Origin: Squalus acanthias
Lineage: Eukaryota
Length of the DNA: 64,000 nucleotides
Direction of reading: 5' to 3'
NCBI GenBank assembly: GCA_030390025.1
Contig: CM059431.1
Location: 157,730,001-157,794,000, forward strand
Notes under the pieces: generated by a model
Databases searched by the model: none
What the model saw: only the letters and a program-made list of their open reading frames with translations
Told to the model about the DNA's origin: nothing
Made by a program: the position numbers and the translations under genes
Shown: positions 10,552 to 62,001 of the stretch, piece by piece
How the letters are laid out: every line of letters starts with the position of its first letter
Position numbering within the stretch: position 1 is the first letter of the stretch

Positions 10552-10829
10552 GTAAGTGAGGAAATTATGATTTAAAAACTTTTATTTCACATCTGAGAAT
10601 CAGAATGCTTGACAGTGGCCCTATGTTTAGAGGATGTCAGAATCTGGGAATCAAGTTCAAACCTGGAACAATGAGATTGAACGTAATTTAGATTTGTCAT
10701 CAATCCAAAACTATTCTGTATAGGTTCAAATTACAATTCAGACCTTTTCTGACGTTTCCTGTAAAAATGCGGAAGTGGCATCTTTTCACTAATCCAGCTG
10801 TTGATCTCTATCTCTTGTGAAGTCTTATA

Positions 10830-11890
10830 AACACCTGGCAGGATCATGGTACACTGTGAAATGCCGTAAACAACTGGCAGGATTATGATACACTGTGAAA
10901 CGCCATAAACACCTGGTAGGATCCCGATGCACTGTGAAACCCCATAGACACCTGGCAGGATCCTGATACACTGTGAAACCCCATACGCACCTGGCAGGAT
11001 CCATATACACTGTGAAACCACAGGCACACCTGGCAGGATCCTGATACACTGAAACCCCGTACACACCTGACAGGATCCTGACACACTGTGAAACCCCATA
11101 CTCACCTGGCAGGATCCTGATAAACTGTCAAACCCGATACACACCTGGCAGAATCCTGATATACTGTGAAATCCCATACACACCAGGCTGGATCCTTATC
11201 AACCTTGAAATCCCAAACACATCAGGTTTAAACTAATAAACTATGAACCCCCATTATAACCTGCCAGGATCCTGTTACACTGTGAAACCCCATACACACC
11301 TGGCAAGATCCTGATACACTGTGAAACCACATACATACCTGGCAGGATCCTGATACACTGTGAAAACCGAACACACCTGACAGGATCCTGATACACTGAA
11401 ATCCAATACGCACCTGGCAGGATCCCGATACACTGTGAAACCCCGTCACATCTGGCAGGATCCTGATACACTGTGAAACCCCAAACACCAGGCAGGTTCC
11501 TAACACACTGTGAAACCCCATACGCACCTGGAAGGATCCTGATATACTGTGAAACCCTATACACACCTGGCAGGATCCTGGTATACTGTGAAACCCCATA
11601 CACACCTGATAGGATCCTGATACACTGAAACCCAGTACACACATGGCAGGATCCTGATACATTGTTAAACCCCATACACACCTGGCAGAATCCCGATAAA
11701 CTGTGAAACCCCATACACACCTGACAGGATCCTGACACACTGTGAAACCCCATACACACCTGGCAGGATTCTGATACACTGACACCCCATACACACCTGG
11801 CAGGATCCTTATACACTGTGAAAACATATATATACCTGGCAGGATCCTGATACACTGTGAAACCCCATACACTCCTGGCATGATCATTAT
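10830..11890. repeat. 39-bp minisatellite, about 27 copies (NLR intron)
   Basis: Unit acacacctggcaggatcctgatacactgtgaaaccccat. Confidence 0.96.
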
Positions 11891-12959
11891 AGACTGTAAC
11901 GAATGTCCCTGAACCTGATATGGAAGATACCTGTGCCACTGGGCTTCTTATCCAGCACAAACTGTAGGAACAGTGGTCGAGAATTGCGAAAAAGTTAAGT
12001 ACTGCAATTGTACATCACGTCATGAACCGTCCGATCGTTTTCGATCTAATTTGAAGATGTACATATATTCCTACAATCAAACATTAAACAAGGAGGGACA
12101 TGAGGTAAAGGCCATGATATGGGTGATTAGAAATTGATTGGACCGATTGCCCTTGGCAGTGAAACAGACAAACTAGAAACAGAGAATCTTTTTGTACTGA
12201 AAGAAGCGTCCTTTCATTCAGCAGGATTTTGAATCACAATTTACTGATTATCAGAAACATATTTGTAATTTACAAAACTACATTATAGGAAACTCGTATC
12301 CACATGAAACAATGGAGTGCAATTATTCTATCAGTTGAAATGAACTCTCAATCTTTTCTTCCCTAACGTAATACTATTTGTAGTGGGCGGCCGTTCTCTT
12401 TCTGATTCTAATCGGTTACATGATGAGACTGTTATATGAAGAAAATAATGTAAGTGTAAAATCACAGCAAAACTATTCTCATTTTCTGAAACAAAACAGG
12501 AGGATGTTTAGGGGAACAAAAGATCACTTTGATCCAAACAATCCTGTCCCTGTTAGAGATGAACTCACCTGCCCCTCCTCTCAGTGTATCCACAGAAACA
12601 CAACCATTGTCTCTTGTCCCCACTTACACTGCCCCTTAGTGTCCTCCCTGGTAACTGGTCTCCCGCTCTATTACCCTTTGGTGAAAAAGATTACCTTGAT
12701 TTCCATTCTTACTCCTGGTTTCGTAGTGTATGTTTTCTCAGTTAACTAATTGTGCTCATTGTAATTTACTTTCCTGCATTAATTTTGTGAATTCTTTAAG
12801 AAGTTCTGATCAATATTTCAATATTCGAAGTCTCTTCCAAACAAAACAAATCTAACTCTTAACTCTGACTTAATTCCTGACGCACATAATCATCATATAT
12901 CTCTCTGCATCTTCACCATTTCAATAACATTCTTCCTGTGATTAGGTGGTTAGAAGAGC

Positions 12960-15900: not shown

Positions 15901-16405
15901 GTCAGTCTGTCCCTCTCCAAGTGAACACACTACCTCGGATAACCTGCCCAAGGCCTGACACATTAAAGGTGGAACTTCTTTCCATTTAGAGTGTGTCCCT
16001 CTCCCAGTACGCACACTACCCCAGATAACTTGCACAAGGACATGAAACACTAACTGTGGAACTTCTGTCCATTCACAATCTGTCCCTCTCCCAGTGCCCA
16101 CACTAATCCAGATAATATGCCCAAAGTCTGACACACTAAAGGTGGAACTTCTGTCCATTCGCAGTCTGTCCCTCTCCCAGTGCTCACATTACCCCAGATA
16201 AACTACCCAAGGACCTGAAACACTAACTGTGGAACTTCTGTCCATTCACAATCTGTCCCTCTCCCAGTGCCCACACTACCCCAGATAACCTGCCCAGGAC
16301 CTGACACACTAGCGGTGGAACTTCTGTACATTCACAGTCTGTCCCTCTCCCAGTGCCCACACTACCCCAGATAACCTGCCCAGGACCTAACACACTAACG
16401 GTGGC
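12960..16405. repeat. ~85-87-bp minisatellite with higher-order variants, split by a CR1 insertion
   Basis: Unit cacactaccccagataacctgcccaaggacctgaaacactaactgtggaacttctgtccattcacagtctgtccctctcccagtgcc; arrays at 12960-13945 and 15291-16405. Confidence 0.95.
13946..15290 (-). mobile_element. Young 5'-truncated CR1 LINE (RT C-terminal half)
   Basis: ORF 14033-15073 with VPQGSVLGP, FADDTK and LVRPHLEYCVQFW; one frameshift near 15075; (ttctatg)n tail at 13946-13970. Confidence 0.96.
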
Positions 16406-16409
16406 TTCA

Positions 16410-19400
16410 CGTTGCATGGATGACTACATGCGCATTAAGTGTCACCAGCTGCAATGCCTCGAGCGACGGTTTACGAAGCTTGAGCGGCTACTGTAGTAAC
16501 TGTGCCGCATTCGCGAGGCTGTTAGCTACGTGGACAGCACGTTTAATGAGGTGGTCACCCCGCAGCCTAAGGGAGAGCAAATGGGTCACCACCAGACTGT
16601 AGAAGACCAGGCAGGCAGTGCAGGAGGCCCCGGAGGGCATCTCGCTCTCCAACCGGTATTCTATTCTGTGTACTGGTGGGGGCGATGGTCCCTATGAGGA
16701 GTGCAGTGAGAGCCAAGTCCTCGGCACCACGGGTGGCTCCGCTGCACAGCGGGGGAGGGGAGGAAAAATAGTGGAACAGTAATTGTGGTAGGGCATTCAA
16801 TAGTGAGGGGAGCAGACAGGTTTTCTGCGGCCGCAGGCGTGAAGGCTGTATGGTATGTTGCCTCACTGGTGCCAGGGTCAATGATGTCACCGAACGGCTG
16901 CAGAGCATTCTGGGGGGAGGGGGTGAACAGACAGATGCCTTGCTCCATATCGAAACAATGACATAGTTAGAAAGAGGGTTGAGGTTCTGCAGGCAGAGTT
17001 TTGGGAGCTATGAGACAGATTAAAAAACAAGACCTCAAAGGTAGTAATCTCCGGATTACTCCCGGTGCCACGTGCTAGTGAGTCCAGAAATAGGAGGATA
17101 GAGCAGATGAATGCATGGCTGGAAGGATGGTGCAGGAGGGAGGGCTTTAGATTCCTGAAGCATTGGGACCGTTTCTGGGGGAGGTGGGACCTGTACAAGC
17201 CGGATGGGTTGCTCCTCGGCAGGGCTGGGACCATTATCCTCGCGGGGGGCGCGGGGAGCTTGCTAATGCTGTTGGGGAGGGATTAAACTAGCTTGGCAGG
17301 GGGATGGGAACCTAAGAATAGAGTCAGTACGAGGGAAGAAAAACTGTAATTGGAAAACAAAAACGTAGAAATTAAATTGGAAGGAAAGAGGAATCAAGGG
17401 CTAGATAGTAGTCAACAAGGAGGTGTGCCTGTACTAAATGGTATATTCTTCAAGGCAAGGAATATAGCGGTCAAGGCAGATGAGCTGAGGGCACAGGTAG
17501 ATAATTGGGACTATGATATTATAGCTAATACAGAGACGTGGCTGAAAGACGGGCAGGTAAGGCAGTTCAACATTCTTGGTTACTGGATTTTCAGTCGGGA
17601 TATAGAGAGAGGTAAAAAGAGAGAGGGGGTCGCGGTATTGATTAAATAAACTATTACAACTGTGAGGAGGGTTGATATGTTGAACGGATCATCAAACGAG
17701 GCTATATGGGTTAGAAACAAAAAAGGGGCGATCAAACTGCTGGGAGTGTATTGTAGACCCCCAAACAGTAAGAGGGAGATAGAAGAGCAAATATGTAGAC
17801 ACATTTCTGCGAAGTGCACAAACTGTAGGTAAGTAATAGTAGGGGATTTAAACTACCCCAATATTAAATGGGATAAAATTAGTGTGAAGGCTATAGAGGG
17901 TGCGGAATTCCTAAAATGCATCCAGGTGAACTTTTTTAGCCAGTATGTAGCAAGCCCAACAAGGGAGGGGGCAGTTCTGGACTTAGTTTTAGGGAATGAA
18001 GCTGGGAAGGTCGAAGGCGTATCAGTGGGGAAGCATTTTGGTGCTAGTTACCAAAGTTCAGTTAGATTTAAGGTAATTATGGAAAAAGGACATGGATAGA
18101 CCAGGAATAAAAATTCTAAATTGGGGGAAAAGCAAATTTTGCTAAGCTCAGAGGGGATTTAGCCATAGTGGACTGGAAACAGCTACTTGAAGGTAAATCC
18201 GTGTCAGAGCAGTGGGAGGCATTCAAGGAGGAGATCTGGAGGGTTCAGAGCAAACATGTGCACTTAAAGAAAAAAGGTGGGAATAACAAATCTAGATGTC
18301 TAGGGACATACAGGGTAGGATAAAGAAAGAAAGGGAGGCGCTTGACAGATACCAAGGGCTAAATACTGCAGAATCTTTAGAGGTGTGCAGACAATATAGG
18401 GGTGCAATTAAAAAGGAAATTAGGAAAGTAAAGAGAGAGCATGAAAAATTCTTGGCAAGTAAAATCCAGGATAACCCAAAGATGTTTTATAAATATATTA
18501 AGAGTAAACGGTTAACTAAAGAAAGAGTGGGGCCTATTAGAGATCATGAGTGTAATGTGTGTGTGGAGGCCGGAGATGTCTGTAAGGTGCTTAATGAATA
18601 CTTTGCGTCTGTTTCCACAAAGGAGAGGGGCGAAGCAGACATTGCTATCAGGGAGGAGGAGTGTGAAATATTAAATGAAATAAACATAGTGATAGAGGAA
18701 GTATTAAGGGGTTTAGCATCTCTAAAAGTGGATAAATCCCCAGGCCCGGATGAAATGTATCACAGGCTGTTGAGCGAAGAAAAAGAGGAAATAGCAGAGG
18801 CCCTGACCATCATTTTCCAATCCTCTCTGGCTTCAGCTGTGGTGCCGGAGGAATGGGGGACTGCTAACGTGGTACCGTTGTTTATAAAGGGAGAAAAGGA
18901 TAGACCGAGTAATTAGAGGGCAGTCAGCATAACCTCGGTAGTGGGAATATTATTGGAAATAATTCTGAAGGACAGGATAAATCTTCATTCAGAATGACAC
19001 GGTTTCATCAAGGATAGTCAGCACGGATTTGTTAAGGGAAGGTCGTGCCTGACGATAATAACAGAAAATGCTGGAAACACTCAGCAGGCCAGGCAGCATC
19101 CGTGGAGAGAGAAACAGAGTTAACGTTTTAGTTCTGGGACCCTTCATCAGAACTGGAAAAAGCTGGAGATGTAACAGATATTAAGCAGGTGCAGAGACCT
19201 GAAACGTTAACTCTGTTTCTCTCTCCACGGATGCTGACTGGCCTGCTGAGTATTTCCAGCATTTTCTGTTGTTATTTCAGATTTCCAGCATCCGTAGTTT
19301 TTTGCTATTGTGTCCTGTCTGACGAACTTGATTGCATTTTTTGCGGAGGTAACAAGGAGGGTAGATGAGGGTAGTTCGTTTGATGTAGTGTATATGGACT

Positions 19401-23055: not shown

Positions 23056-23335
23056 TTAAGGCTGTATAGTATTAGCCATAGGAGAAAATATCACCTTCAT
23101 AGAAATCTCCATGTTCAGTAAATATTAGAATCAAATGAGGATTAGAACGTTTTCTGGGCCATTGCTCACTTTCAAGTGAGGTTTCCATTAACTGAGTTTA
23201 ATTTCTCACGCATATCTATTGAAGCTGTGAATTAAATCTTGCAATATTTCAATGAATAGTGAAATGGTATTGAGAAGTTGTTTTATGTCAATTCAACTAA
23301 CATTGAGAACCACTTCTTCTCTGTTCTAATTGCAG

Positions 23336-25073
23336 ATGTTCAACAGAAACACAAGGATACACTTCGGGTACAAACTGAAACACTGAGAGTGAACACTATC
23401 CTAATAAAGGAGAAGGTTAAGGTTTTCCAGCTGGTTGATCGATACGCTGAGCTAACGGTCATTTCTACTGTTCGAGATCGGACACTTGTAGAACATGAAC
23501 TGCTGGCAAGAGGCCGAGACCATGAAGAGTGGAGAGAGAAACATCTCCGGAGAGAACTGGAAAAAATCCGAACTGATCAATTATTCCACAGCAGTTTTTC
23601 CCATAGAAAATCCAAATCTGGGAGTTCAGGAGCAGTGAGTGGAGTCCCGGGGATTGGAAAAACAACAATGGTACAAAAGATTGTTCATGACTGGGCCACT
23701 GGGAAAATATACCCAGACTTTCAATTTGTTTTCAGTTTTAAATTCCGGGATTTGAACGCTATTAACTGTAGAATAAACCTGAGGAATCTGATACTGGATC
23801 TGTATCCTTACTTTGGGAATATTCTGAGAGAGCTCTGGAAGAACCCAGAGAGATTGCTGTTTATATTCGATGGTTTGGATGAATTCAATGACCGGATCGA
23901 TTTTGCTGACAATCGGAGAAATACAGAACCTCAGCACATTTGCACAGATCCCGAAGACTGGTGTGAAGTGTCTGACATTGTATGCAGTTTAATACAGCAC
24001 AAGCTGCTCCCAGGATGTTCCGTGCTAGTGACCAGCCGCCCCACATCATTACATTTATTGGAAAAGGCTGAGATCAGTGTCTGGGCTGAAATCCTGGGAT
24101 TTGTTGGTGAAGAAAGGAAGGAATATTTCAACAAGTTTTTTGAAGATCAGACGGTGGCAGCAGCTGTTTTCAAACATGTGGAGGAGAACGAGATCCTGTA
24201 CACCATGTGCTACAACCCTTCCTACTGCTGGATCCTCGGTCTGTCACTGGGTCCCTTCTTTATACAAAGAGACAGGAATCAGCAGCGAATCCCCAAGACC
24301 ATCACCCAACTATATTCCTACTATATTTACAACATTCTGAAAAACCATGGCCGAGAGATTGAAAGCCCCCGTGATGTGTTACTGAAGATTGGGGAGATGG
24401 CCTTCACAGGAGTCTCCGAGAAGAAGATTGTGTTCAGAAATGGAGATTTGATCAAATACAATCTGCAACCTTCACAGTTCCTGTCTGGGTTCATGATGGA
24501 ACTTTTGGAGAGAGATGATTCTGCCCAGAGCATGGTGTACACATTCCCGCACCTCACTATCCAAGAGTTTGTAGCCGCACTCGCACAATTCCTGACTCCA
24601 GATCCCGGTGACATCCAGAAGCTCCTCAGAGAATCCCACAGCAAGGAAGATGGACGATTTGAGATATTTCTCCGTTTTGTTGCTGGTCTCTCCTCCCCAC
24701 AGTCAGCTCGGCCCCTGGAGGAGTTTCTGGGTCAATTTATTCATCAAACCACCTGCCGAGTGATTGACTGGGTGAAGGAGAAGGTTGAAGGTCAGATTGG
24801 AAACACAGGGAGTGAAACTGGTAAAAGGAACCTCCTGAACACATTCCACTACCTGTTTGAGTCTCAGAATAAAGCACTGGCTCGGAACACAGTGGGATCT
24901 GTGGAAACACTTGGATTTAGTGGATTGAGGTTGACCCCGATTGACTGTGCGGTTCTGTCTCATGTTATTGGACTCTGTGATACAATAAAACACCTCAATC
25001 TAATGAACTGCTACATTGAGTGTGAAGGTCTCCAGCGGCTGGGACCCGTACTGCACAAATGCCGGGTGTTGAG
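23336..25073 (+). CDS. NLR gene large exon: FISNA-like segment + NACHT NTPase + HD1/WHD/HD2 + first LRR
   Basis: ttgcag|AT ... TTGAG|gtaact. Walker A GVPGIGKT, Walker B LLFIFDGLDE, sensor-1 VLVTSRP, WHD motif FPHLTIQEFVAA, HD2 FLRFVAGL. Open over 1738 bp (inside ORF 23278-25077). Confidence 0.97.
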
Positions 25074-25958
25074 GTAACTGTTTTTTTAACTGTAACTATT
25101 TGGAGAATTGTAGAACAGACACGGATTGTGTTGTTGCTCAGCAACGAAGGGAAACAAACAGTTAAGTTAAACCAGAGAGAAGCAGATTCAACACAAATAT
25201 GACCAATAATAAGAGGATCGGTTAGTAACTCCCTAAGGACTGGAGAATCTGGAAATGACCCTTGTGAACAAGTAGGGATTTTACAATCTCTATCGGATCA
25301 GCAAATAGAGATGACTGAGAGTCTGATAATTTAATTGCAATAAATCATATTTATTTCTGTTTTTCTCACTGCCTGAGATATGTCCATTGAAGAGGCTCCT
25401 TCTCACTGTTACTCACGTAGGCCGAGACTGACTGTAGCAGTCCGTGTGTATGAGCATCCCGCACTCTTCCCGAGGTGTAGAGGCAAGCGACAGTTACCGG
25501 ACTGTCAGCGGGTGTAGGAAAGGGAATGATTAATATAATGTAAGCAGTATAAAGAACAGGAAATCACTGCGTTATCATTTAATTCTGGAAAAATCGCCCC
25601 TTTATCTTAATATCCGGGATTTAAGGAGCAGCAGAAATGGGACAAATTTCCCCAAACATGACGGGGATCGGTCATTGAGCTCCAGGAGGGTAATTCTGAT
25701 CATCAGGGAATGAGACCTGACTCAGGAACATTTAAAGGCTTCACACAGACAACACTGTAGTTAATAAATTTATTTACTGACTGTCCCTGAATTTATGGGG
25801 CGTTGGAAAGAGTGGCATTCATTGTCAGTGACAGGAAAACCGGGTTATTAATTACCAAAAGGATTTTCAGTGTTTCCTGTAATATCCGAGAGAAAAAATT
25901 GTATCAGATCAGGTGTTTGATTGAATTTGTTTCTCACTCTCTGTCGGTTTATGTTTAG

Positions 25959-26045: not shown

Positions 26046-26099
26046 GTAAGTATCAGATTGTGTGAGATTGTGTTTATAATAACTGGATGCCTGCCTCTG

Positions 26100-27020
26100 T
26101 ACATTATCATTAGTGCCAGTAATAGTTTTATTAATAAACTCAGTACGTTATTATTAGTATCAGTAAAAGTGTTATTAATAAACACTGAACAATATTATTA
26201 GTATCAGTAAAAGTGTATTAATAAACACTGAACATTATTATTAGTATCGGTAATTGTGTTATTAATAAATTCTGCAAATTATTATTAGAATCAGTAATAG
26301 TGTTATTAATAAACTCTGAACACTAGTTTAACTGTCAATAATAGTGTTTTTAATAAACCCTGAACACCATTATTACTGTCAGAAATTGTGTTATTAATAA
26401 ACTCTGAACACTATTATTAATATCAGTAATAGTGGTATTAATAAACTCTGAGCACTATTTTTACTGTCAATAATAGTATTATTAATAAACAGCGAACATT
26501 ATTATTAGTATCAGTAATAGTGTTATTAATACAATCAGCACATTATTATTCGTATCAGTAATAGTGTTATTAATAAACACTGTAGATTATTATTAATATC
26601 AGTAATAGTGTTACTAATAAACACTGAAAATTATTATTAGTATCAGTAACAGTTTTATTGATAAAGGCTGAACATTATTATTAGTGTCAGTAGCAGTGTT
26701 ATTAATAAACGCTGAACATTATTAGTTTCAGTAACAGTGTTATTAACAAACACTGTACATTATTATCAGTATCAGTAACAGAATTATTGATAAACACTGT
26801 ACATTATTATTAGTATCAGTAACAGTGTTATTAATAAACGCTGAACATTATTATTGGTATCAGTAACTGTGATATTATAAAACGCTGAACATTATTATTA
26901 GTTTCAGTAACAGTGTTATTAATAAACACTGTACATTATTATTAGTCTCAGTAACAGTATTATTAAAACACACTGTACATTATTATTAGTGTCAGTAATA
27001 GTGTTATTAATAAACACTGG
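26100..27020. repeat. AT-rich ~44-bp minisatellite, about 21 copies, in an LRR intron
   Basis: Unit taataaacactgaacattattattagtatcagtaatagtgttat. Confidence 0.93.
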
Positions 27021-34471: not shown

Positions 34472-34792
34472 CTTGATAAACTCTTGCTAAATAAACACAA
34501 TGTAAACGGTCGGAAAGCATTTCAAATCCCAGAATACTGCAATTTCACTTGAATAATTCATCACCGAGGCAGTCTGCAGCGATAGAACTGGAATCATCCG
34601 TTATTATACAGTCAATAGCGTCTCGTCTCGAAGTCCAGTTAAATTCTTTCTAAATGAGTTCATAACTGGGCCTGAATCTACAACAGGTCATCCGTGTACT
34701 TGGGACTCCAGGCGGTGCAAGCTCGGTTGCTACCGGTCTCTCACACGAATCACCTCCCTCGGGTGGGGAGCGGATTCTTCCACTATTCTGAT

Positions 34793-35502
34793 ACAAAAGC
34801 AAAACACTGCGGATGCTGGAAATCTGAAATATAAACATAAAATGCTGGAAACACTCAGCAGGTCAGGCAGCATCTGTAGAAAGAGAAGCAGTATTAACGT
34901 TTCAGGTCGATGAAACTTTTTCCGAACAGGAAAAAGTTAGAGATATAACAGATTTTTAATAAAGTGTAGGGGGAGGGAAAGGGAGGAGGGGAGGAAAGAA
35001 CAAAAGGGAAGGTCTGTGATAGGATGGAAGGCAGGAGAGATTAAAAAAAACAAATGGGATGATGTTACAAGGCAAGATGAGATGTAATGGGACAGGTTAA
35101 GAAACGGAAGATGAATTTAGATGAGGTGTCAATGGCAATGGCAGAATCACAAACAGCGACCTTGTGAGAGAAAGAAAATAGGGGCCGAGGTTATGATCTG
35201 AAATTGTTGAACTCGATGTTGAGTCCAGAAGGCTGTAAAGCGCCTAATCGAAAGATGAGGTGCTGTTCCTCGAGCTTACGCTGAGCTTTGTTGGAACAGT
35301 GTAAGAGGCCGAGGACGGAGAGATCAGAGTGGGAGTGGAGCGGAGAATTAAAGTAATAGGCGACCGGAAACTTGCGGTCACACTTACAGACTGAACGGAG
35401 GTGTTGCACAAAGCAGTCACTCAATCTGCGTTTGGCCTCCCCAGTGTAGAGGAGACCGCATCCTGAGCAGCGAATACAGTACACTAAATTGCAAAAGTAC
35501 AA
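34793..35502 (-). mobile_element. Penelope-like element 3' fragment (GIY-YIG endonuclease + pLTR)
   Basis: NLVYCIRCSGCGLLYTGEAKRRLSDCFVQHLRSV...RKLEEQHLIFRLGALQPSGLNIEF*, followed by the same terminal repeat seen in the palindromic mini-elements, with a decayed hammerhead-like motif (~34890-34930). Confidence 0.9.
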
Positions 35503-35529
35503 CCTCGAGTGGGAGAGGGCCCGGCTGCT

Positions 35530-38500
35530 GGGTGACATTGGCCTTGGCTGCTCTGTGATTGGCTCCTGGCTCATTTGTGATGTCACCTGGAGACAGGTTT
35601 TCAGCCCTGGTTAAACAGCATCAGTGGGATATTATTGTGGGCGGAGCTGGAGCTGGCAACGTACATTGTGAGTGAGTTCAGTTCTCAAAAAGTACTTCTA
35701 GCAAATGTAACTAATTGTAAATAGGTTCAAATTAAAATTATTCATACTCGCAAAATTATTCCCATTCCTTTCGACTAACAGATTCTGGAATTAATATGAT
35801 TCCTTTTATATTAAAAGATTCTTGGAGTGAGCATTATCTCAGGAAGGTGGCGAAAGCAGAATCGAATCAGCACCACACTAACTGGGACTGGAGAAAGGCA
35901 TCTGGTTTCACAGAGCAGATCTGGTGGGACCAACACACCCATTGGACAGGACGGGATAAAACAGTGAGTTTCAGCAATGATTGGAAAGGCTGAGAATCCC
36001 ATCAGTACAGGATTTTTTCAAGTGAGAGTCTAACAAGCTATTGTTTGCCGTTTAATTTCTCGCAAAAGGCACGGCCTTTGATGCGATTATTTGACTGGGG
36101 ATTTACTGGGATGTAAAGCTATTCCATACCTCACCTGGGAGTGCGTGATGCTTACATGTACAGTGATTTCTGTCCTGTATGCATACCATGCTGTACGCGA
36201 GATGGTGTGCTTCATTGGGTAGTGTAAGTGGAGCTGTACGCTTCATTGGCCACATGCTGTATCTGAGTTCACTGTGCTTGCTGAACGATAATAAAGTGAG
36301 ATTTACACTGTATGTAACGCCTGTCTACCTGCCCTCGGAGGATTTGACGGGCCAGTGTTGAGGGAGTTTTACTCTGTTTCTAACCCGTGATGTACCTGCC
36401 CTGGGGTGTATGATGGGACTTTGTAGAGGGCCCTTACTCTGTAATTAACTATTTCGGTGTCTAACCTGGGTATGTTTGATGGGATCGTGTGGAGGGAGCT
36501 TCACACAGTATCTACCCCGTGCTGAAGCTGATCTGATATTGTCTGATGGGCAGTTTAAATATGCTTAACACTGTATCTAACCCATGCTTCACTTGACCTG
36601 GGATAGTTTGATGGGACAATGTAGAAGAAGCTCTAAGTATTATTGCCCATGTTTTCCAGTCCAATTATGGCTCCAATTGCCCCACCCATTAATAGCCCTA
36701 GTGATCCCTTCAATGTGGCTCTGCCGCCCCTTCCTGTTACAGGGAATAGACTGGTTTTAGAACACCGAGGTGTTTGTTACATCATCATCCAAGCACCATT
36801 ACCACGAACTGCCTTTCACTGCCAAGGCAGGAGGAGACAAACTGCCTGATATTATGTGAGGGAAGCTTTAGGTTGTATAAACAAAAAGGTGGAGATTTGG
36901 GCCATGGAACAGTGAGTCCTCATATTTGGAGGCTGGGAGGGAGATTTCGTAAGGGGCAATTTTGCGTGGTTGTTCTCCATGCCTATTATTTTTCCGTTCA
37001 TGGGATGTGGGCGTCGCTGGCAAGGTCGGCATTATTGCCCATCCCTAATGGACCCTGAGAAGGTGTTGGTGAACCGCTGCAGTCCTTGTGGTGAAGGTGC
37101 TCTGTGGTACAGGAGAACGGGGTCGGAGACAGGACTGAATATACAACATGTGTTCATCCCCAGTGAGACTGCGCACCAGGAGCAGAGCATGGTCATGTGA
37201 CCCTGTGAAACCTCATTGTTACTGGCTGATGTGTGATTGGCTCCTGGCACCATTGTTATATCACCTGGAGATAGGTTACCACCCCTGGTTACGCCCCATC
37301 AGTGGTGAGTTACTGTGGGCGGAGCTGGAGTTGGCAGCAGACATTGTGAGTGAGTAAAGCCCCTATAAATAGGCGTAAGGAAGTATAAGAACAATTTAAT
37401 ATTAAAATGAGTAATTCAACCAAATGACATTAATGATAAATATATTCAAATTAAATATATTGATAGTCGCATTATTAGTCCCATTGTTTTATGAGTCACA
37501 GATTCCAGAATTAACGAGGCGTTTTGATATTAAAAGTTTCTCGGAGTGACTATTATCTCAGGAAGGTGGAGAGAGCAATGTCGAATCAGCAACACACTAA
37601 CTGCGACTCGAGAAAGGTCGCTGGTTTCACAGAGTAGATCTGATGGGACCAACACTCTCATTGAACAAGACAGGATTAATCAGGAAGCATCATGAATGAT
37701 TGAAAAGGCGAGGTGCTCCACTGAGAATCAATCCCATCAGTACAGGATTTTTTCCAAGGTGAGAGTCTAACACGCTGTTGGATGCCTTTTAATTTCTGGC
37801 AAAAGGCTCGGCATTTGATTCGGCAATTTCACTGGAGATTCACTGGTATGCAAAGCTCGCCCATACCTGAGCTGGGAGTGCGTGATACTTACATGTACAG
37901 AGATTTCTGTCCTGTATTCATAACATGCTGTTCATGAGATGGTGCGCCTCATTGCGTAGAGTCAGAGGAGCTGTACGGTGCATTGGCCAGATGCTGTATC
38001 TGAGGTTACTGTGCATAATGAACGATAATACGGTGAGCTTTATTAGTGAGAGTATCTGACCTCTGTTTGCCTGCCCTGGGAGTGTTTGATGGGACAGTTT
38101 AGAGGGAGATTTACTCTATAGATAACCCGTGCTGTACCAGCCCTGGGAGTGTTTGATGGGACAGTGTAGAGGGAGCTTTACTCTATATATAACCCGTGCT
38201 GTATCTGCCCTGGGACTGTTTGATGGGACAGTATAGAAAGAGCTTTACTCTGTATCTAACCCGTGCTGTACCAGCCCTGGGAGTGTTTGATTGGACTGTG
38301 TAGAGGAGCTTTACATTATATCTAACCCGTGCTGTACCTGCCCTGGGAGTTTTTGATGGGGCAGTGTAGAATGAGCTTTACTCTGTATCTAGCCCGTCCT
38401 GTACCTGCCATTGGACTGCTTGAGGGGAGACTGTAGTTGGTGCTTTTCTCAGTATCTAACCCATGCTGTACCCGCCCATGGATGTTCTGATTGCACGGTG

Positions 38501-41390: not shown

Positions 41391-42758
41391 TCACAAAGCG
41401 ACCTTCACTGGCTGACGTGTATCATTACACCCTCTATATTTTCCATTTGCTTCTCCATTGATCCACTCTGTACAGCACATTTCTCTCACACACCTAGACT
41501 GACTGCCTCACACAGGCTACACTTGAGGAATATTCTCCCTCCCACAAACGACACGCTCTTTAGCAGCGGCGTCAGATGTGAGAAGTGCTGTTCCCCAGCT
41601 ATCTGTATTGGATCTTCAACTTTTCACCATGTTTATTATTGACTTAGACGGAGCAACAGAGTGTTATAGATCCATGTTTGAAGATCGCAGTAAGTTAGGA
41701 AGCACGGTAGTAGTGCAAATGGAAGCAGGACTTAACCAAAGGGACAGAGACAGATAAAGTGAGTGGGCAAAACAAGACAACTTGAATTCATTGTGCGCAA
41801 GTGTGACCTCATCCAATTTGGATCGAAGTAAGATAATCAGTTTATTTTCTAAATGATTGAGGAGAAAAGAGGTGTGTGAGTGCCAGTTCCCAAATCATTA
41901 AACACTAGTAGACATGTACAGACATCAGTCAGAAGTCTAATGTAATCCTGCCCTTTATCTCAAGTGGGCTGGACATGGAGGAGGAGTTTAAGCGTCAGTT
42001 GTATGGACCCTTGTTCAGTGTCATCAGAATTACTGCATTCAGATACTGCCTGACCTGCTGAATATTTCCAGCATTTTCAGTTTTTATTTCAGATTTCCAG
42101 CATCCGCAGTATTTTGCTTTTGCAATAGAAATCTGGAACCCTGTTCTCAAAGAGGCTGTGGATTTTCGGTAAAGTGGTGGTTTCAAGACTGATAAAAAAA
42201 TCCGGCTTCCATGCGAATTTTCGAATTGTATCAATCAGTTTTGCTAACGTTCACACAGAGACCTTCACTGGCTGGCGTGCTTCAATACACCCTCTACATT
42301 GTGCATTTCCTTCTCCAGTAATCTCGCCTGTACAGCGCATTTCTATCACACACCCAGACTGACTGCCTCTCACAGGCTTCACTTCAGAAATATTCTCCCT
42401 CCCACAAGCGAGACGCTCCTTAGCAGCGGCGTCAGATGTGAGAAGTGCTGTTCCCCAGATATCTTTATTGGATCGTCATCCTTTCACCATATTTATTAAT
42501 GACTTCGATGGAGCAACAGTGTGCGGCAGCTCCAAGTTCGCACTAAGTTTGGAGGCACTGCAGTAGTAAGCGACAGAGACAGATGAAGAGACTGGGCAAA
42601 ATTAATGCAAATCGAGTTAATTGTACAAAAGATCATCCACTTTGGAACCAAGTAAGATAACTCGGAGTATTTTCTAAAGGATGGGAAGCTATTAACTCTT
42701 GCGGAGCAAAGAGGTTTGTGAGTCCCAGTTCACAAATTATTAAAAACTACTATACATG
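41391..42758 (+). repeat. Local direct duplication (41391-41916 vs 42251-42758) containing decayed CR1 RT
   Basis: Shared accttcactggctg...tagcagcggcgtcagatgtgagaagtgctgttccccag; offset ~860 bp. Confidence 0.85.
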
Positions 42759-51279: not shown

Positions 51280-51790
51280 TATTAATAGCACTTTGCAATA
51301 TAATAGTATGTTGCAATGGAATAGAAATTTGCAATACAATAGAACTTTGCAATGGAATAACATTTTGCAATATAATAGTCCTTTGCAATGAAATAGCATT
51401 TTGCAATATAATAGTCCTTTGCAATGGAATATCACTTTGCAATATAATAGTCCTTTGTAATGGAATATCACTTCGCAATATAATTGCACTTTGCAACGAA
51501 ATAGTGCATTGCAATGGAATATTGCTTTGCAATGGATTAGCACTTTGCAATGGAATAGTCCTGTGTAATGGAATAGCATTTTGCAATATAATAATTCTTT
51601 GCAAGGGAGTAGTATTTTGAAATATAATAGTCCTTTGCAATGGAATATCACTTTGCAATATAATAGCCCTTTACCAATGGAATATCACTTTGCAATGGAA
51701 TATCACTTTGCAATATAATAGCCCATCCCAATGGAACATCATTCTGCAATGGAATATCACTTTGCAATATAATTACGTGTTGCAGTGGAC
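51280..51790. repeat. 18-bp minisatellite with 36-bp dimeric structure
   Basis: Alternating ctttgcaatataatagtc / ctttgcaatggaatatca. Confidence 0.93.
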
Positions 51791-54700
51791 TGTCACTTTA
51801 AATGGCCACGTAGCTTGTGTTGCACAGAGCGGGGTCCCGCCCTGCCCGCCCGGCTGCTGTGTGTGGACATTGTTTGGAGCCGCTCACAGGCTGTACTGCT
51901 GCTCACAAACACATCCAAGCAGGCAGCACATGGTGAGGAAGCAAGGAAGGAATGGCGGCTGCAGCTCGCCAGCTCGTCTCCTCTGTGAGTGAGTGAGTGA
52001 GTGAGTGTGAAGCTCAGGACCACAAGGGGCTGGGGTAGTGGCCTGGGGTTTGAAGGGGGTGAACAGCCATGAAGGGGGTGATTGGCGCCCCAGGAGATGG
52101 GCACGGAGGGAGGGTGAAAAGAAGAAAATATAATCAAGAATCTAATAATAACATATATACTTTGCTTCTGTAAACAAAATGTCTGTCTGAGATTTGAGTG
52201 GAGTGGAATAAAATGAATAGAAATATCCCACAGCAGCTTTTGCTCTGAAAACATTCCACAAATATTACCCAATAAAGCTCAGTGCAGAAAAAATCAAGTG
52301 GATTTATTATTCTGAAAGTAATAAAAAAGTAAATATAATATATATATACTTTGCTTTTAGAAAAGTCTTGTCTTGTATTGGTTGGGTTGGTAATGAAAGG
52401 GAGAGTAAGATCCCACAGCAGGATATGCTCTGACACACCCCACAAACATTCCCCTATAAAGGCCAGTCCTGAAAAAAAATCACATGGCTTGATGTATATA
52501 TGTAGCTTTAATTTTTACAAAAGTCTTGAAAGAAAGGCAAAGTAAGATCCCACACAAGCAGGGTCCGGAATGAAATAGTATGATCTAATGGTGTATACTT
52601 TCTGTTTTTTTCAGCCATGAGATGCAGAACCAATGCACATGGCAGGTAACTTGAAATCAGACAAGCCCTGCATACACACTAGCGTTTGCTGTCTGTCTGT
52701 CTCTCTCACTCACACACATACACACACACAGGCCAGCCTGCTAATTGCTACACAACACTGTCAGCAATGAAAGAAAGTTGATTTACATCATTGCTCTGCT
52801 GTGTTTGGCAGTTTAAAAGCTGAAACACTTTTCAGTATCTTCTCTTTCCATCTTGCGGCCTACAGAAAAAGGCTCTATATTCTACATCAAAAGCAAAATA
52901 TTGTGGAAGCGGGAAATCGGAAATAAAATTAGAAAATGCTCGAAGTACTCAGTAGTTCAAGAAGCAACTGTTATGAGAGAAAAACATAGTTAATGTTTCA
53001 GCTGAATGACCTTTCATCAGAACCTTGCCAGAATCTGATGAAAGGTCATCGAGCTGAAACATTAACTCGGTTTCTCTCTCTCTCCACAGTTGCTGCCTGA
53101 CCTGCTGAGTATTTCCAACATTTTCCACTATGATTTCTGTTCTGCATATTGTCTTGATTTCATGTGTCTCTCTCACTGCCTGCCTGGTCTCAATTTGAGT
53201 GGAGTGGAATATAAAGAATGCAAAGATCCCACAGTAGCTTTTACTATCTGATGCTCCACAAAATATTTTTCAGTTTCTTAACGTTTTACTTTGCGGCCTA
53301 CAGCAACAGCCTTTCTATTCTGCATCTTGGCTTTTGATTTCATGTCTTTCTCTCTCACTGACTGTCTGTGTGTCTCTCTCACACTCACACACTCTCCTTC
53401 CCATCCACATTGAGCTAAAATTTACAGTGACATGACACACAGACTCACACAGACTCTGCAATTTGCAAAAACTAACACTCACACACACTGATCCATTTTG
53501 AAAGTGGTGTAGCCTGGGAGTGTCAATTTTTGATGAGAAATCGGGCCCCCGAGAGGAAATGAAAGCCCGAGAGAGTGAAAAGAAGTAAATACAATCAGGA
53601 ATAAATAATATATATATACTTTACTTTTGTTAATTAATGGCTGCATGCCTGTGATAGGCATGGAGTGGAATAAAATGAATGGAAAGATCCCTGAGCAGCT
53701 TTTGCTCTGAAAACATCCCAAGCACATTCCCCAATAAAGCCCAGTCCAGAAAAAATTAAAATGGATTATTCTGAAAATAATTTTAAAATATAATATATAC
53801 TCTTTTTATTACAAAAGTCTTGTTTTGTTTGTGTTGGGCTGAAGGGGAGAGTACGATCCCACAACAGGAAATGCCATGAAACACTCCACAAAACATTCCC
53901 CTATAAAGTCCAGTCCAGAAAAATAACAAATGGCTTGATGTATATATGTAGCCTTGCTTTTCACAAAATTCTTGAGAGAAAGGCAAAGTAAGATCCCACA
54001 GCAGTGCAGAATGGGATGCAATCAGTATGATCTAATGGTATATACTTTCTGTTTTTGTCAGGCATGAGATGCAGTACCAAAGCCCATGGCAGGTAACTTG
54101 AACAGAGACAAGCCCTGAATACACACCAGCTTTTGCTGTCTGTCTGTCTGTCTCTCTCTATCTCACTCACCCACACACATACACACACACACAGGCCTTC
54201 CTGCAAAATTGCCCCACAACACTGTCAGCAATGAAAGAAAGTTTATTTATATCATTCCTCTGCTGTGTTCAGCAGTTTAAAAGCAAACAGACACTTTTCA
54301 GTATCTTATCTTTACATTTTGCGGCCTACAGACACAGACTTTCCATTCTGCATCAAAAGCAAATGCTGTGTATGTGGGAAATCTCAAATAAAAACAGAAA
54401 ATGCTGGAAATCCTCCGCAGGTCAGGCAGCATCTGTGGAGAGACAGACAAACAGAGTTGATATTTCAGCTCGATGACCTTTCGTCAGATTCTGGCAAGGT
54501 TCTGACGAAAGGTCACGCCACAGATGCTGCCTAACCTACTGAGTATTTCCAGCATTTTCTGTTGTATTTCTATTCTGTATGTTGTCTTGATTTCGTGTGT
54601 CTCTCTCACTGCCTGCCTGCCTTGTCTTGATTTGAGTGGAGTGGAATAAAAAGAATGCAAAGATGCCACAGCAGCTTTTACTGTAAGACAGCCCACAAAG

Positions 54701-55528
54701 ATTCTTTTCAATATCTCAGTGACTGGCTGTCTGTCTTGAAGTGAAGTGAAATAAAGTGCGATGAAGTGATACACAACACCATTACATGTGGATCAGTCCA
54801 GAATGAAATAAATCGGGTTTAATACAACAACAGCAGCTAATAAGACACTAGACCACATCTCACACAAACACTTGCTTTTGCCCTCTCTCTCTCACACACA
54901 CACACCATGGCCAGCGTACAGAAGGATGACTGCTGTGTTGGAAGACTAATACCAAAAGGACACTTTTCAGTACCTTATTCTTCCACTTTGTGGCAGACAG
55001 AAACAGGCTTTCTATTCTGCAACTTGCCTTTTGATTTCATGTCTCTCTCTCTCACTGACTGTCTCTCTGTCTGTCACTCACACAGTCTCCCTCCCACCCA
55101 TATTGAACTAAAGTTTACATTAACATGACACACACACTGAAACAGACACTGAAATTTGCAGAAACACAGAAACTGACGCTCATACAGACACATACACACA
55201 GAGTCTGCAATTTGTAGAAACACAGACACCCACGCACATACAGACACACTCACACAGACTCTGCAATTTGCAGAAACACAGACACCCACGCACACACCGA
55301 CACACTGACACAGACTCTGCAATTTGCAGAAACACAGACACCCACGCACACACCGACACACTGACACAGACTCTGCAATTTGCAGACACCCACTCACATA
55401 CAGACACACTCACACAGACTCCGCAGTTTTCAGAAACTCACACACACATTTATTTTGAAAGATGTGCAGCCTGGGAGTGTCAATTTTTGATGATGTCCCT
55501 TCCTGGCCTTGCGGGCATGTTTAATGAG

Positions 55529-55654
55529 TGAGAAGTCGAACATCACCAGGTTATAGTCCAACAGTTTTATTTGAAATCACAAGCTTTCGGAGCTGCTGCC
55601 CCTTCGTCAGGTGAAGTTTTTGTTCACCCCAGTCCAACACCGGCATCTCCGCAT
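55529..55654 (-). mobile_element. 126-bp Penelope-type mini retroelement with 13-bp TSD
   Basis: catgtttaatgag duplicated at 55516-55528 and 55655-55667; single copy (catgtttgatgag, 57578-57590) in the paralogous unit. Confidence 0.9.
55577..55614 (-). ncRNA. Minimal type-I hammerhead ribozyme motif
   Basis: Minus strand reads ucac-CUGACGA-a-ggggc-agca-gcucc-GAAA-GC-UU-guga: intact core, stem I ucac/guga, stem II ggggc/gcucc, palindromic stem III AGCU. Confidence 0.72.
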
Positions 55655-56291
55655 CATGTTTAATGAGGACAAGCAAACAGGAAGAAGTGAAGCCGAGGCC
55701 CAAGAAATCCGGGTCCCCGAGAGGAAATGAAACCCGGGAGAATAAAAAGAAGTAAATACAATCAGGAATAGATAATAATATATATACTTTACTTTTGTTA
55801 ACTAAATGTCTGCCTATCAGTGGTTTGCCTGGAATGTAATAAAATAAATGGAACGATCCCACGGCAGCCTTTGCACTGAAAACATCCCAAGCACATTCCA
55901 AAATAATGCCCAGTCCAGAAAAAAATCTAACAGTTATTCTGAAAATATTAAAAAATATATAATATATACATTGTCTTGTTTGGGTTCGGCTGAAGGGGAG
56001 AGTAAGATCCCACAGCAGGATATGACATGAAACACTTCACAAACATGCCCCTATAAAGTCCAGTCCAGAAAAATATCAAATGGGTTGATGTATATATGTA
56101 GCGTTGCTTTTTAAAACATTCTTAAAAGAAAGGCAAGGTAAGATCCACAGCAGCGCAGTCTGGAATGAAATCAGTATGATCTAATGGTGTATACTTTCTG
56201 CTTTTTTCAGACATGAGATGTTGTACCAATGCACACAGCAGATAACTTGAACACAGACAAGCCCTGCATACACAATCGCTTTTGCTGTATG

Positions 56292-56345
<54 letters not shown>

Positions 56346-57593
56346 GCCTTCCTGCAAAACTGTCACAAAACACTGTCAGCAAAGAAAGAACGTTGATTTC
56401 TATCATTCCTCTGCTGTGTTCGGCAGTTTAAAATGAAACAGAGAGTTTTAGTATCTTATCTTTTCATTTTGCGGCTTACAGAAACAGGCTTTCTATTCTG
56501 CATCAAAAGCAAAAGTTGTGGATGTGGAAAATCTGAAATAAATACAGAAAATGCTGGAAATACTCAGCAGGTCAGGCAAAATCTGCGGAGAGAGAGAGAA
56601 AGAGAGTTAACATTTCAGCTCGTTGACCTTTCGTCAGATTCTGGCAAAGTTCTGACGAAAGGTCATCGAGCTGAAAAGTTAACTCTGATTCTCTCTCTCT
56701 CACCACAGATGCTAACTGACCTGCTGAGTATTTCCAGCACTATCTGTTTTTAGTTCTATTCTGCATGTTGTCCTGATTTCATGTGTCTCTCTCACTGCCT
56801 GCCTGCTTTCTCTTGATTTGAGTGGAGTGGAATAAAAAAGAATGCAAAGATTCCACAGCAGCTACTACTGTCAGACAGTCCACAAAAACATTTTTCAGTA
56901 TCTCACTGACTGACTGTCTGTCTTGTAGTGAAGTGAAATGAAATAAAGTGCAATAAAGTGATACACAACAGCATTACATGTGGACCAGGCCAGAATGAAA
57001 TCAATGTTTTTTATACAACAACAGCAGGTCATAAGACAGCAGACAACATCTCACACAAACTCTAGCATTTGCTCTCTCCCTCTCTCTCTCTCTCACACAC
57101 ACACACACTCACAGCCAGGCCAGACTGCAAAGGGATGACTGACGTGTTGGAAGATTAAAACCAAAAAGACACTTTTCAGTATCTTATCTTTTCACTTTGT
57201 GGCCTACAGAAACAGGCTTTCTATTCTGCAACTTGCCTTTTGATTTCATGTCTCTCTCACTCTCACTGACTTTCTGTCTGTCTGTCTGTCACTCACACAG
57301 TCTCCCTCCCACCCACATTGAACTAAAATGGACAGCGGCATGACACACAGTGTGAGTCACAGCCTCTGCAATTTGCAGACACACCGACACCCACGCACAT
57401 ACAGACACACTCACACGGACTGCAATTTGCAGAAACACAGACACCCTTGCACATACAGACACACTCACACAGACTCTGCAATTTTCAGAAACTAACTCTC
57501 TCACGCAAACATCCATTTTGAAAGGGGTGCAGCCTGACAGTGTCTATTTTTGATGATGTCCTTTCCTGCCTGTTAGCCATGTTTGATGAGGAC

Positions 57594-60500
57594 TTCACTT
57601 GGCCAGTGCTGGGACTAGTGTCCTGGCGAATCGAATAACTAGGGCTGTGGAGAGGGCTTTAAACTAATTAGTGGGGGGGAGGTTTCAAGAGAGCAAAAAA
57701 TAAAAATGACAACAGAGAGGGTCATAGACATAGGTAGCAGTAGGGGAATCACAAATCAGAGCGTGGCAGGAAGGGACAGAGTGTGTGGAGTAAAAGGTAA
57801 ACTGGTAAAAAGTGAAAAAGCAGGAACTAAGTGCCACAAAGCATATTTGAAAGTTCTCTATCTGAATGCACGTAGCATTCGTAACAAAATAGACGAGTTA
57901 ATGGCACAAATAACTACATATGGTTATGATATTGTGGCCATTACAGAAACATGGCTGCAGGGTGACAATGCCTGGGAATTAAACATACCAGGTTATTTAA
58001 CGATCAGGAAGGACAGGCAGGAAGGAAGGGGAGGTGGGGTGGCTATGTTAATAAAGGAAGGAATCACTGTAATCCAGAGTAATGATATTGGGTCAAAAAT
58101 CATGATAATGAAACAGTTTGGGTGGAGATAAGGAATAATAAGGGGAAAAAAACATTAGTGGGCGTAGTCTATAGGCCTCCGAACAGTTGCAACTCTATTG
58201 GACGGAGTATCAATCAGGAAATAGTTGAGGCATGTAATAAGGGAACATCTATAATTATGGGGGATTTTAACTATCATATTAATTGGACAAATCAAATGGG
58301 GCAGGGCTGCCTTGAGGATGAGTTCATTGAGTGTATTAGGGATGGGTTTCTTGAGCAGTATGTAACTGAACCGACCAGGGGGCAAGCAACCTTAGATCTG
58401 GTCCTGTGTAACGAGACAGGATTAATTAAAAATGTCCTAGTAAAGGATCCCCTTGGAATGAGTGACCATAACATGGTTGAATTCCATATTCAATTAGAGG
58501 GTGAGAAGGTTGGATCTCAAACAAGCGTGCTAAGCTTGAATAAAGGAGACTATGAAGGTATGCGAGCGGAATTGAGTAGAGTGGATTGGGAAAATAGATT
58601 AAAGGGTAAGACGACACATGATCAGTGGTGTACATTCAAGGAGTTATTTTACAACTTCCAAAAAATATATATTCCACTGAAAAGAAAAGGGTGTAAAAGA
58701 AAGGACAGTCATCCGTGGCTAAGTAAAGAAATTAAGGATAGTATTCGACTAAAAACAAGGGCATATAAGGTAGCGAAATCTAGTGGGAGGACAGAGGATT
58801 GGGAAAACTTTAAAAGGCAGCAAAAAATAACAAAAAGATTGATTAAGAAAGGGAAGATAGATTATGAAAGTAAATTAGCAAAAAATATAAAAACAGATAG
58901 TAAGAGTTTTTATAGTTATATAAAAAGAAAAAGGGTGGCTAAAGTAAATGTTGGTCCCTTAGAGGATGAGACCGGGAAATTAATGGTGGGAAATATGGAG
59001 ATGGCAAAAACACTGAATGAATATTTTGTATCAGTCTTTACAGTAGAGGACACTAAGAATATCCCAACACTGGACAAACAGGGGGCTATAGGGGGAGAGG
59101 AGCTAAACACGATCAAAATCACTAAGGAAGTGGTACTCGGTAAAATAATGGGACTCAAGGCGGATAAATCACCTGGACCTGATGGCTTACATCCTAGAGT
59201 CTTGAAGGAAGTGGCGGTAGGGATTGTAGATGCATTGGTAATAATTTTTCAAAACTCCCTGGATTCCGCTAAGGTCCCGGCAGACTGGAAAACTGCTAAT
59301 GTAACACCCTTATTTAAAAAGGGCAGTAGACAGAAGGCTGGTAACTATAGACCGGTTAGCCTAACATCTGTGGTAGGTAAAATTTTGGAGTCCATTATTA
59401 AGGAAACAGTAACAGGACATTTGGATAATCATAATTTAATAGGACAAAGTCAGCATGGTTTTACGAAGGGGAAGTCATGTTTGACAAATTTGCTGGAGTT
59501 CTTTGAGGAAGTAACATATAGAGTGGATAAAGGGGAACCAGTGGACGTAGTGTATTTAGACTTCCAAAAGGCATTTGACAAGGTGCCACACAAAAGATTA
59601 TTGCTTAAGGTAAAAAATCACGGGATTGGGGGCAATATTCTGGCATGGATAGAGGATTGGCTATCTAACAGAAAGCAAAGAGTTGGGATAAATGGTTCAT
59701 TCTCAGACTGGCAATCAGTAACTAGTGGTGTTCCACAGGGGTCAGTGCTGGGTCCCCAACTCTTCACAATCTATATTAACGATTTGGAGGAAGGGACCAA
59801 GTGTAACATATCAAAATTTGCAGATGATACAAAGATGGGAGGGAAAGTAGTGAGTGAGGAGGACATAAAAAACCTGCAAGGGGACATAGACAGGCTAAGT
59901 AAGTGGGCAGAGATTTGGCAGATGGAATACAACACTGGAAAGTGTGAGGTGATGCACTTTGGCAGGAAAAATCCTAGAGCAATTTATTATCTTAATGGCA
60001 AGAAACTGGAGAGTACTGAAGTGCAAAGGGATCTGGGGGTCCTGGTGCACGAAACTCAAAAGGTTAGTATGCAGGTGCAGCAAGTGATTAAGAAGGCAAA
60101 TGGAATGTTGGCTTTCATTGCTAGGGGGATAGAATATAAAAATAGGGAGGTATTGCTTCAGTTGTACAAGGTATTGGTGAGACCGCACCTGGAATACTGC
60201 ATACAGTTTTGGTGTCCTTACTTAAGGAAAGACATCCTTGCTCTCGAGGCAGTGCAAAAAAGGTTCACTCGGTTAATCCCGGGGATGAGGGGGTGGTCAT
60301 ATGAGGAGAGGTTGGGTAGATTGGGACTCTACTCATTGGAGTTCAGAAGAATGAGAGGCGATCTTATTGAAACATATAAGATTGTGAAGGGGTTGGATCG
60401 GGTGGATGCGGGGAGGATGTTCCCGATGACGGGTGAGACGAGAACTAGGGGACATAGTCTTAGAATAAGGGGCTGCTCTTTCAAAACTGAGATGAGGAGG

Positions 60501-60888
60501 AACTACTTCACTCAGAGGGTGGTAGGTCCATGGAATATGCTGCCACAAAAAGCTGTAGAAGCTACAACATTAATTAAATTTAAAACAGAAATAGACAGTT
60601 TCCTAGAAGTAAAGGGCATTAAGGGTTACGGGGAGCGGGCAGCAATTTGGACATGAGTCTAGGTTCGGATCGGTCATGGCCCTGTGGGTAGTGGAGCGGG
60701 CCCAGGGACTGTGTAGCCTGATTCTGCTCCTATTTCGTGTGTGCAATTCTGTTAGATGCAGGAGATGGTTCTGTGATGGATAGTAGATTGGCGGTTAGGA
60801 TCAGATCAGCCATGATCTTATTGAATGGCGGAGCAGGCTCGAGGGGCCGATTGGCCTACTCCTGCTCCTATTTCTTATGTTCTTATGT
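57594..60888 (+). mobile_element. Young CR1 LINE: ORF1 C-terminus + almost intact ORF2 (APE + RT)
   Basis: ORF1 end LHLASAGTSVLANRITRAVERALN*; APE 'YLNARSIRNK..YDIVAITETWL' (57706-58131); one frameshift at ~58100; 844-aa continuation with [22 protein letters not shown]; (ttcttatg)n tail. Confidence 0.97.
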
Positions 60889-62001
60889 AATCCAACAGGG
60901 AGAGGTGAAGCCAAGGCCACAGAAATCCGGGTCCCCACGAGGAATTGAATGACTGGGAGGGTGAAAAGATGCAAATGCAACCATGGATAAATACTAATAT
61001 ATCTACTTTACTTTTGTTAACTAAATATCTGCCTGTCTGCGATTAGCGTGGAATGAAATAAAATGAATGGAGAGATTGCACAGCAGCTTTTGCTTGGAAA
61101 ACAGCCCAAGCACATTCCCCAATAAAGCTCAGTCCCGAAAAACATCAAATGGATTATTCCGAAAATATTTTTTAAATATATAATAATAATACGTTGTTTT
61201 TACAAAAGTCTTGACTTGGTTTGGTTGGGTTGGGCTTAATGGTAGGCTAAGATCCCACCGCATGATATGCTCTGAAACACCCCACAAAAATTCCTCGATA
61301 AAGTCCAGTCCAGAAAAAATCAATTGAGTTGATGTATATATGTAGCTTTGCTTTTTACAAAAGTCTTTAAAGAAAGGAAAGGTATGATCTCACAGTATTT
61401 CAGTCTGGTATTAAATCAGTATGATCTAATGGTGTATATTTTCTGTTTTTTTCAAGACATGAGATGCAGTAGCAATGCACACAGCAGGTAACTTGAACTT
61501 AGTCAAACCCTGCATACACATCAGCGTTTGCTGTCTCTCTCTCTCACACACACAAACACACACACACAGGCCAGCCTGCAAAATTGCCAAGCAACATTCT
61601 CAGCAAAGAAAGAATCTTTATTTCTCTCATTGCTCTGCTGTGTTTGGCAGTTTAAAAGCAAAAATACACTTTTCAGTATCTTATATTTTCATTTTGCGGC
61701 CTGCAGATACAGGCTTTCTATTCTGAATCAAAAGTAAAATAAAGCGGAAGATTGAAATGGGAATTAAAACAGAAACTGTTGGAAATACTCAGCAGTTCAG
61801 GCAGCATCTGTGGAGAGAGAGAGAAACAGAGTTAACGTTTCAGCTCGATGACCTTTTGTCAGATTCTGTCAAGGTCCTGACGAAAGTTCATCGACCTGAA
61901 ACATGAAATCTGTTCCTCTCTCCACAGATGCTGCCTGACCTGCTGAGTATTTCCAGCATTTTCTGTTTTGATTTCTATTCTGCATGTTGTCTTGATTCCA
62001 T

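Follow-up and report, generated by a model that had tools for sequence, protein, structure and literature searches.

A 126-bp insert at positions 55529-55654 of the analysed window (the whole 64-kb stretch of DNA) lies between two copies of the 13-mer catgtttaatgag and carries a candidate hammerhead ribozyme on its minus strand, raising the question whether it is a mobile element in its own right or a remnant of a longer one. The original prediction regarded it as a non-coding, retrozyme-like parasite mobilised in trans by a Penelope-like element (PLE). Our analysis indicates that it is very probably a high-copy repeat's 3′ end, likely the pseudo-LTR (pLTR) and tail of an endonuclease-positive (EN+) PLE, copied in truncated form as two pieces, with the hammerhead piece inverted relative to the tail.

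The two flanks of the insert, 55516-55528 and 55655-55667, were identical at 13/13 positions, and the 13-mer has no further exact copy in the window; shuffling the 2 kb around the locus 200 times never produced a 13-mer pair spaced like this. The perfect 13-bp target-site duplication (TSD) proposed earlier was therefore found, but the duplication itself measures 9-13 bp with microhomology, because the family itself also ends in the first 3-4 letters of the right copy (55655-55658); likewise, the last 1-2 letters of the left copy agree with what the family natively has at the tail boundary. The host locus is a degenerate macro-repeat with units of ~2 kb, spanning 52.1-62.0 kb. In the next unit, the predicted empty site (57578-57590, plus strand) does hold the motif once, but with a 12/13 rather than an exact match, and a CR1 LINE interrupts this unit 3 bp downstream for ~3.3 kb, so that the right flank picks up again near 60889; in a third unit the target site is gone through a deletion near 53536. 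The paralogous flanks of the insert were only 105/123 and 834/999 identical between units, versus the perfect TSD, and since the flanks had diverged while the TSD had not, the insertion is younger than the macro-repeat amplification, just as originally proposed. The interruption, at 57594-60888, comprises a long CR1 LINE, whose 856-aa open frame (ORF 58086-60656) encodes RVT_1 and endonuclease domains, together with a second CR1 3′ piece, and the same macro-repeat spot was struck by two unrelated retroelements, namely the insert at 55529 and the CR1 located 3 bp from the paralogous site.

To see how the family is organized elsewhere, contigs from four of the 20 listed public runs (X1, X4, X6 and X8) were aligned to 55516-55667, giving 4,854, 9,419, 922 and 904 records, respectively. 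X1 and X4 are guessed to be DNA and X6 and X8 only guessed to be RNA; all are contigs, and X15-X20, with small word shares, were left out. Summed contig depth is not a copy number and was used as a contrast only, and palindromic copies assemble poorly, so that longer direct arms are under-counted. Read in this way, both halves of the insert reached a summed depth of 10^5-10^6 in the DNA-guess runs, with ~6-24 for the unique flanks. Depth at 55613/55624 was 246,444/403,468 (X1), 356,753/919,547 (X4), 1,913/52,478 (X6) and 5,149/164,179 (X8), and that at the junction 55617/55618 was 647/585, 517/400, 73/73 and 0/0, i.e. a ~26- to 2,300-fold drop across the junction, down to zero in one run.

The loose ends of the contigs revealed what the halves are joined to instead. 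Among the records listed, those ending before 55617/55618 continued into the insert's left end, reverse-complemented, with an agreement of 0.74-0.98 (8 records in X1, 33 and 17 in X4, and 8 in X8), while ahead of 55529 some letters matched the right piece in reverse complement (X1, X8) and others were unrelated (X6, agreement 0.45); one contig each in X4 and X8 directly carried the joint 55528->55618 on opposite strands. From these loose ends and this joint, the native order of the family is the reverse complement of 55528-55617, followed directly by 55618-55658, and the insert junction splits this order without loss or duplication except for one ambiguous letter. Past 55617, records from each of the four runs extend into sequence that begins alike, so on the 5′ side of the hammerhead the family reaches beyond the insert, with only ~16 of its letters visible there in the contigs; in the 64-kb window this upstream extension had one match with 3 mismatches, with 1.02 expected by chance. 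Behind 55657/55658, the flanks were unrelated to one another (agreement 0.37-0.51), which places the true 3′ end of the family there.

The insert is thus composed of an inverted, 5′-truncated element-end piece of ~89 nt (55529-55617, minus strand), which contains the hammerhead motif, an AAUAAA and the 5′ arm of a predicted hairpin, beginning at the tail boundary and ending 7 nt upstream of the hammerhead core, and of a terminal A/C-rich tail of ~41 nt (55618-55658, plus strand), whose end overlaps the right TSD. The ribozyme motif and the tail sit on opposite strands, and so no single transcript of the insert has both in sense. The 126-bp insert as first described is real and TSD-flanked, but instead of one colinear element it consists of two pieces in opposite orientation.

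A second insertion of the same family, comprising the tail only (35 bp, 6869-6903, plus strand; 33/36 identical over the aligned stretch), was found within a CR1 3′ end, flanked by the 6-bp TSD ttgaat (6863-6868 and 6904-6909). Two other CR1 copies in the window (near 20.7 kb and 46.2 kb) are without exactly the 41 bp at 6869-6909. This copy ends at the same place as the tail at 55618-55658 and confirms the anatomy. Many contigs also stop at the tail boundary. Examined by eye, this boundary in native order (55606-55658, around 55528/55618) resembles a 3′ splice site, with a CTCAC branch-like motif, a pyrimidine run, a CAG at 55630-55632 and an ATG at 55656-55658 with an A at -3, and it may represent the end of a 5′-UTR intron ahead of an ORF start.

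The candidate minimal type-I hammerhead occupies 55577-55614 of the minus strand. Its 4-bp stem I pairs 55614-55611 with 55580-55577 and is followed by core C3 at 55610; its 5-bp stem II pairs 55602-55598 with 55593-55589 and includes one G.U; the GAAA lies at 55588-55585, accompanied by the AGCU palindrome, the CUU triplet and one extra A, and the predicted cut falls between 55581 and 55580. The invariant core, the extra nucleotide before 10.1, the G10.1-C11.1 pair and the palindromic stem III are all present. A descriptor requiring core, stem II, palindromic stem III, UH and stem I, which was written with this motif already known, gave a single match when both strands of the 64 kb were scanned and none in 500 dinucleotide shuffles. 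The complete minus-strand core with stems I and II, AGCU stem III and CUU, and its assignment to the Penelope-type minimal class, were therefore borne out. The Rfam scan that had been proposed as a check was run as well and gave no match to any hammerhead model either window-wide (E<=1) or locally (E<=10), a miss that would be expected for minimal variants; weak Rfam miRNA and snoRNA matches to palindromes were treated as chance. Just 3′ of the motif lies an AAUAAA hexamer (55566-55571, minus strand), a putative polyadenylation signal.

Family variants in the contigs of the four runs placed 7 of 13 variable sites within 55577-55614, namely two loop-II sites, N7, N17 (a U-to-C change), the stem II G.U, which most of the X1 and X6 depth shows as A-U, and the two members of one stem-I pair. 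The 11 core positions held none of the seven (chance 0.07; 0.04 when 10.1/11.1 are counted), in a contig sample biased to look-alikes and with variants unlinkable within molecules, and this sparing of the core points to conservation of the hammerhead in a suggestive manner rather than as proof. Changes at the stem-I partners 55613 and 55578 would be compensatory, but they are not linkable to one molecule; a variant among the loose ends has a stem II of five Watson-Crick pairs with a 3-nt loop. The minimum-energy fold of the native order holds stems I and II of the hammerhead plus a 9-bp + 5-bp hairpin, in which tail positions 55624-55639 pair with the upstream arm 55543-55563, and that of the inserted order has no stem I. 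Folding energies were not beyond those of shuffles in either order (z -0.36 for the native order and z -1.31 for the tail hairpin), and folding energy was dropped as evidence for or against the motif. The lower depth over the hammerhead in the RNA-guess runs X6 and X8 was not used either, because the stem-II loop variant breaks alignments at 55593 and contigs cannot show RNA ends.

What kind of element does this end belong to? The layout closely resembles that of truncated EN+ PLE insertions as described in the accessible text of PMC3846280 and PMC8557442, which are 5′-truncated, often with an adjacent inverted copy without tail, and have a 30-40 bp tail at one end only, example TSDs of 8-10 bp and a hammerhead in the terminal repeat. 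Correspondingly, the insert has a minimal hammerhead in its terminal repeat, a 41-nt tail at one end, an adjacent inverted 5′-truncated piece and a short, variable TSD (9-13 bp, and 6 bp at 6869-6903) with empty paralogs. It differs in that its direct copy is reduced to the tail alone, leaving no inverted-repeat overlap, and would represent an extreme case. The hammerhead agrees with the minimal metazoan PLE hammerheads reported by Cervera and de la Pena in 2014 (PMC4209133) in its full core, extra nucleotide between 9 and 10.1, G10.1-C11.1, palindromic 15.2-16.2 and short helix I, whereas its helix II has 5 bp versus 7-8 bp in the Schistosoma families; most of those motifs are single and probably derive from truncated PLEs, and the minimal monomer did not cleave in vitro. 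A similar order is found in the Poseidon element PAc of Anolis carolinensis (PMC11167929), in which the hammerhead is followed, after <100 nt, by a tail within an A/C-rich predicted stem-loop; the AT-rich target is shared as well, and so, presumably, is copying through an uncleaved hammerhead.

The PLE assignment is therefore likely, resting on hammerhead type, tail, inversion and TSD. Such ends presumably follow a GIY-YIG ORF in shark genomes, which we also take as part of its basis. No RT or GIY-YIG ORF linked to the family was found in the window, and exact-pattern scans for the family in metagenome, viral and prokaryote collections gave 0 loci. A short, SINE-like parent of >126 bp, derived from a PLE, non-autonomous and dependent on mobilisation in trans, of which the insert would be a truncated inverted copy, would agree with this and with the mere ~16 letters visible upstream of the hammerhead, and such PLE derivatives and solo pLTRs have been described (PMC8557442, PMC3846280, bioRxiv 10.64898/2026.07.22.740005); but nothing observed limits the length of the family, and we consider such a parent unlikely. 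Elsewhere in the window, a GIY-YIG-like ORF end (35191-35610 within 34770-35610, minus strand) is followed by decayed end sequence of a second, different end family; the 34770-35610 region had 37 homologs at E<=0.001, among them one protein from a skate that gave Pfam matches to RT and, weakly, to GIY-YIG.

Whether the 126 bp could still form a discrete, non-coding retrozyme-like family that transposes as a unit was judged against the metazoan non-LTR retrozymes. These tandem repeats carry type-I hammerheads and are expressed as circles (Cervera and de la Pena 2020, PMC7229834), and according to the Li et al. 2026 preprint (10.64898/2026.07.22.740005) a retrozyme needs two consecutive units and retrozymes derive from PLE pLTRs. 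The insert shares with them the type-I hammerhead, the lack of coding capacity, a TSD of >4 bp and the kinship with PLEs, and its perfect TSD, its intact hammerhead motif and the few contigs that cross this junction or one almost identical to it (1 gap in X1 record 7 and no gap in X6 record 24; summed depth 400-650 in X1 and X4) would suit such a unit. Unlike them, it has a single minimal, non-canonical ribozyme motif, no uniform unit and an internal inversion that sets hammerhead and tail on opposite strands, and no tandem array was present over 55516-55667, with one hammerhead descriptor match in 64 kb. Moreover, the junction is far rarer than either half, the native order differs, and at least six other same-strand joins of the inverted piece to the tail were seen, in one contig per run where seen (55558->55617, 55567->55639, 55577->55639, 55578->55625, 55582->55640 and 55594->55641). 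With the rare junction, these other joins and the extension of the family past the hammerhead, no recurring unit with fixed ends emerged. The original prediction had held that variable ends would mark ordinary truncated copies rather than a distinct family, and because variable ends and truncated copies, including the tail-only insertion, are what was found, the retrozyme-like unit is largely refuted and now very improbable. The ribozyme motif has no nearby partner and is antisense to the tail needed for re-mobilisation, and the insert is accordingly read as a dead passenger, an ordinary dead insertion.

How the two pieces came to lie head to head is less certain. Twin-priming 5′ inversions of L1 were reportedly described by Ostertag and Kazazian in 2001. 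In L1 twin priming, priming on both target strands yields a forward 3′ piece and an inverted upstream piece between TSDs (PMC9148063, PMC2246262), the same arrangement as in the insert, except that the second priming point here is a fixed, recurrent tail edge instead of a chance internal match and that poly(A) is lacking. For PLEs, the purified Anolis protein introduces nicks in both strands and extends them, favours AT-rich DNA, uses mainly uncleaved RNA and has two RT start sites that bracket the tail within the AC-rich stem-loop (Frangieh et al. 2024, PMC11167929). Based on these parallels, the GIY-YIG endonuclease of the element would nick the two strands of the AT-rich target with an offset of 9-13 nt. 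On the bottom strand, the 3′ end, able to pair 3-4 nt with the RNA end, would prime RT at the distal start site and copy the ~41-nt tail only, while the top-strand 3′ end would prime at the proximal start site, i.e. the 5′ boundary of the tail, with 1-2 nt of microhomology, and copy ~89 nt upstream through the hammerhead before halting 7 nt ahead of its core. Since this synthesis would have run across the scissile bond, the template was presumably uncleaved or re-ligated. Joining of the two cDNAs head to head and gap filling would then leave the inverted piece and the tail between the TSDs.

That each target strand used a different start site on one RNA appears to us about evenly balanced, and the assignment of one strand per site remains our inference, because Frangieh et al. 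found no start-site difference between the two strands in vitro. We give a similarly even chance to the broader proposal that Penelope elements twin-prime by design, with the nicked strands starting at the 3′ end and the 5′ edge of the tail on the same uncleaved RNA, so that tail and inverted copy would be products of one reaction and this insertion its minimal footprint. The main rival, possible but clearly less probable, starts from the same PLE end and supposes an ordinary fold-back copy (inverted arm, direct arm and tail, made by self-priming or template switching) that later lost its ~90-bp direct arm through a hairpin-driven deletion. A second PLE family commonly occurs in the window as fold-back insertions (52920-53137, 56535-56756 and 61761-61975), and Arkhipova et al. 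(2013, PMC3846280) suggest that head-to-head palindromes form by self-priming. Such a deletion, however, would have to stop at the tail boundary within 1 nt, and the other joins and the tail-only copy also begin in or at the tail, which argues for a stop of synthesis there rather than random later loss.

The layout of an inverted copy plus tail has already been described for PLEs, and the insert would be one further instance. It offers a clean example for the question how PLE tails and inverted copies arise, and if two-site twin priming is true, the many such stumps in the genome would reveal where the two start sites and the stops lie in vivo. The origin of these tails and inverted copies was called undefined by Craig et al. 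in 2021 (PMC8557442) and explained in part by Frangieh et al. (PMC11167929). Our literature search, with subscription papers and Repbase/Dfam outside its scope, brought up no description of the insert's family, no shark PLE paper and no application of twin priming to PLEs. The case also warns against taking a short insert for a retrozyme because it has a TSD and a hammerhead; the strand order needs comparing with that of the family.

Several other features of the window were recorded. A second hammerhead-like PLE end family forms a fold-back insertion at the same place in four macro-repeat units (52920-53137, 54386-54570, 56535-56756 and 61761-61975) and, being shared at the same place by these four, is older than the amplification; it shows a 13-bp direct repeat at 56491/56754 and has further pieces at 19055-19314 and 42040-42138. 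A 604-aa open frame at 23263-25077 (plus strand), with NACHT, NOD2_WH and NLRC4_HD2 domains, is an exon of an NLR-type immune gene. Minisatellite arrays lie at 2869-5533, 10827-11897, 12967-16404, 26097-27019 and 51284-51773, with units of 51, 39, 86, 44 and 18/36 bp, respectively, and a CR1 fragment interrupts the 86-bp array at ~14.0-15.1 kb.
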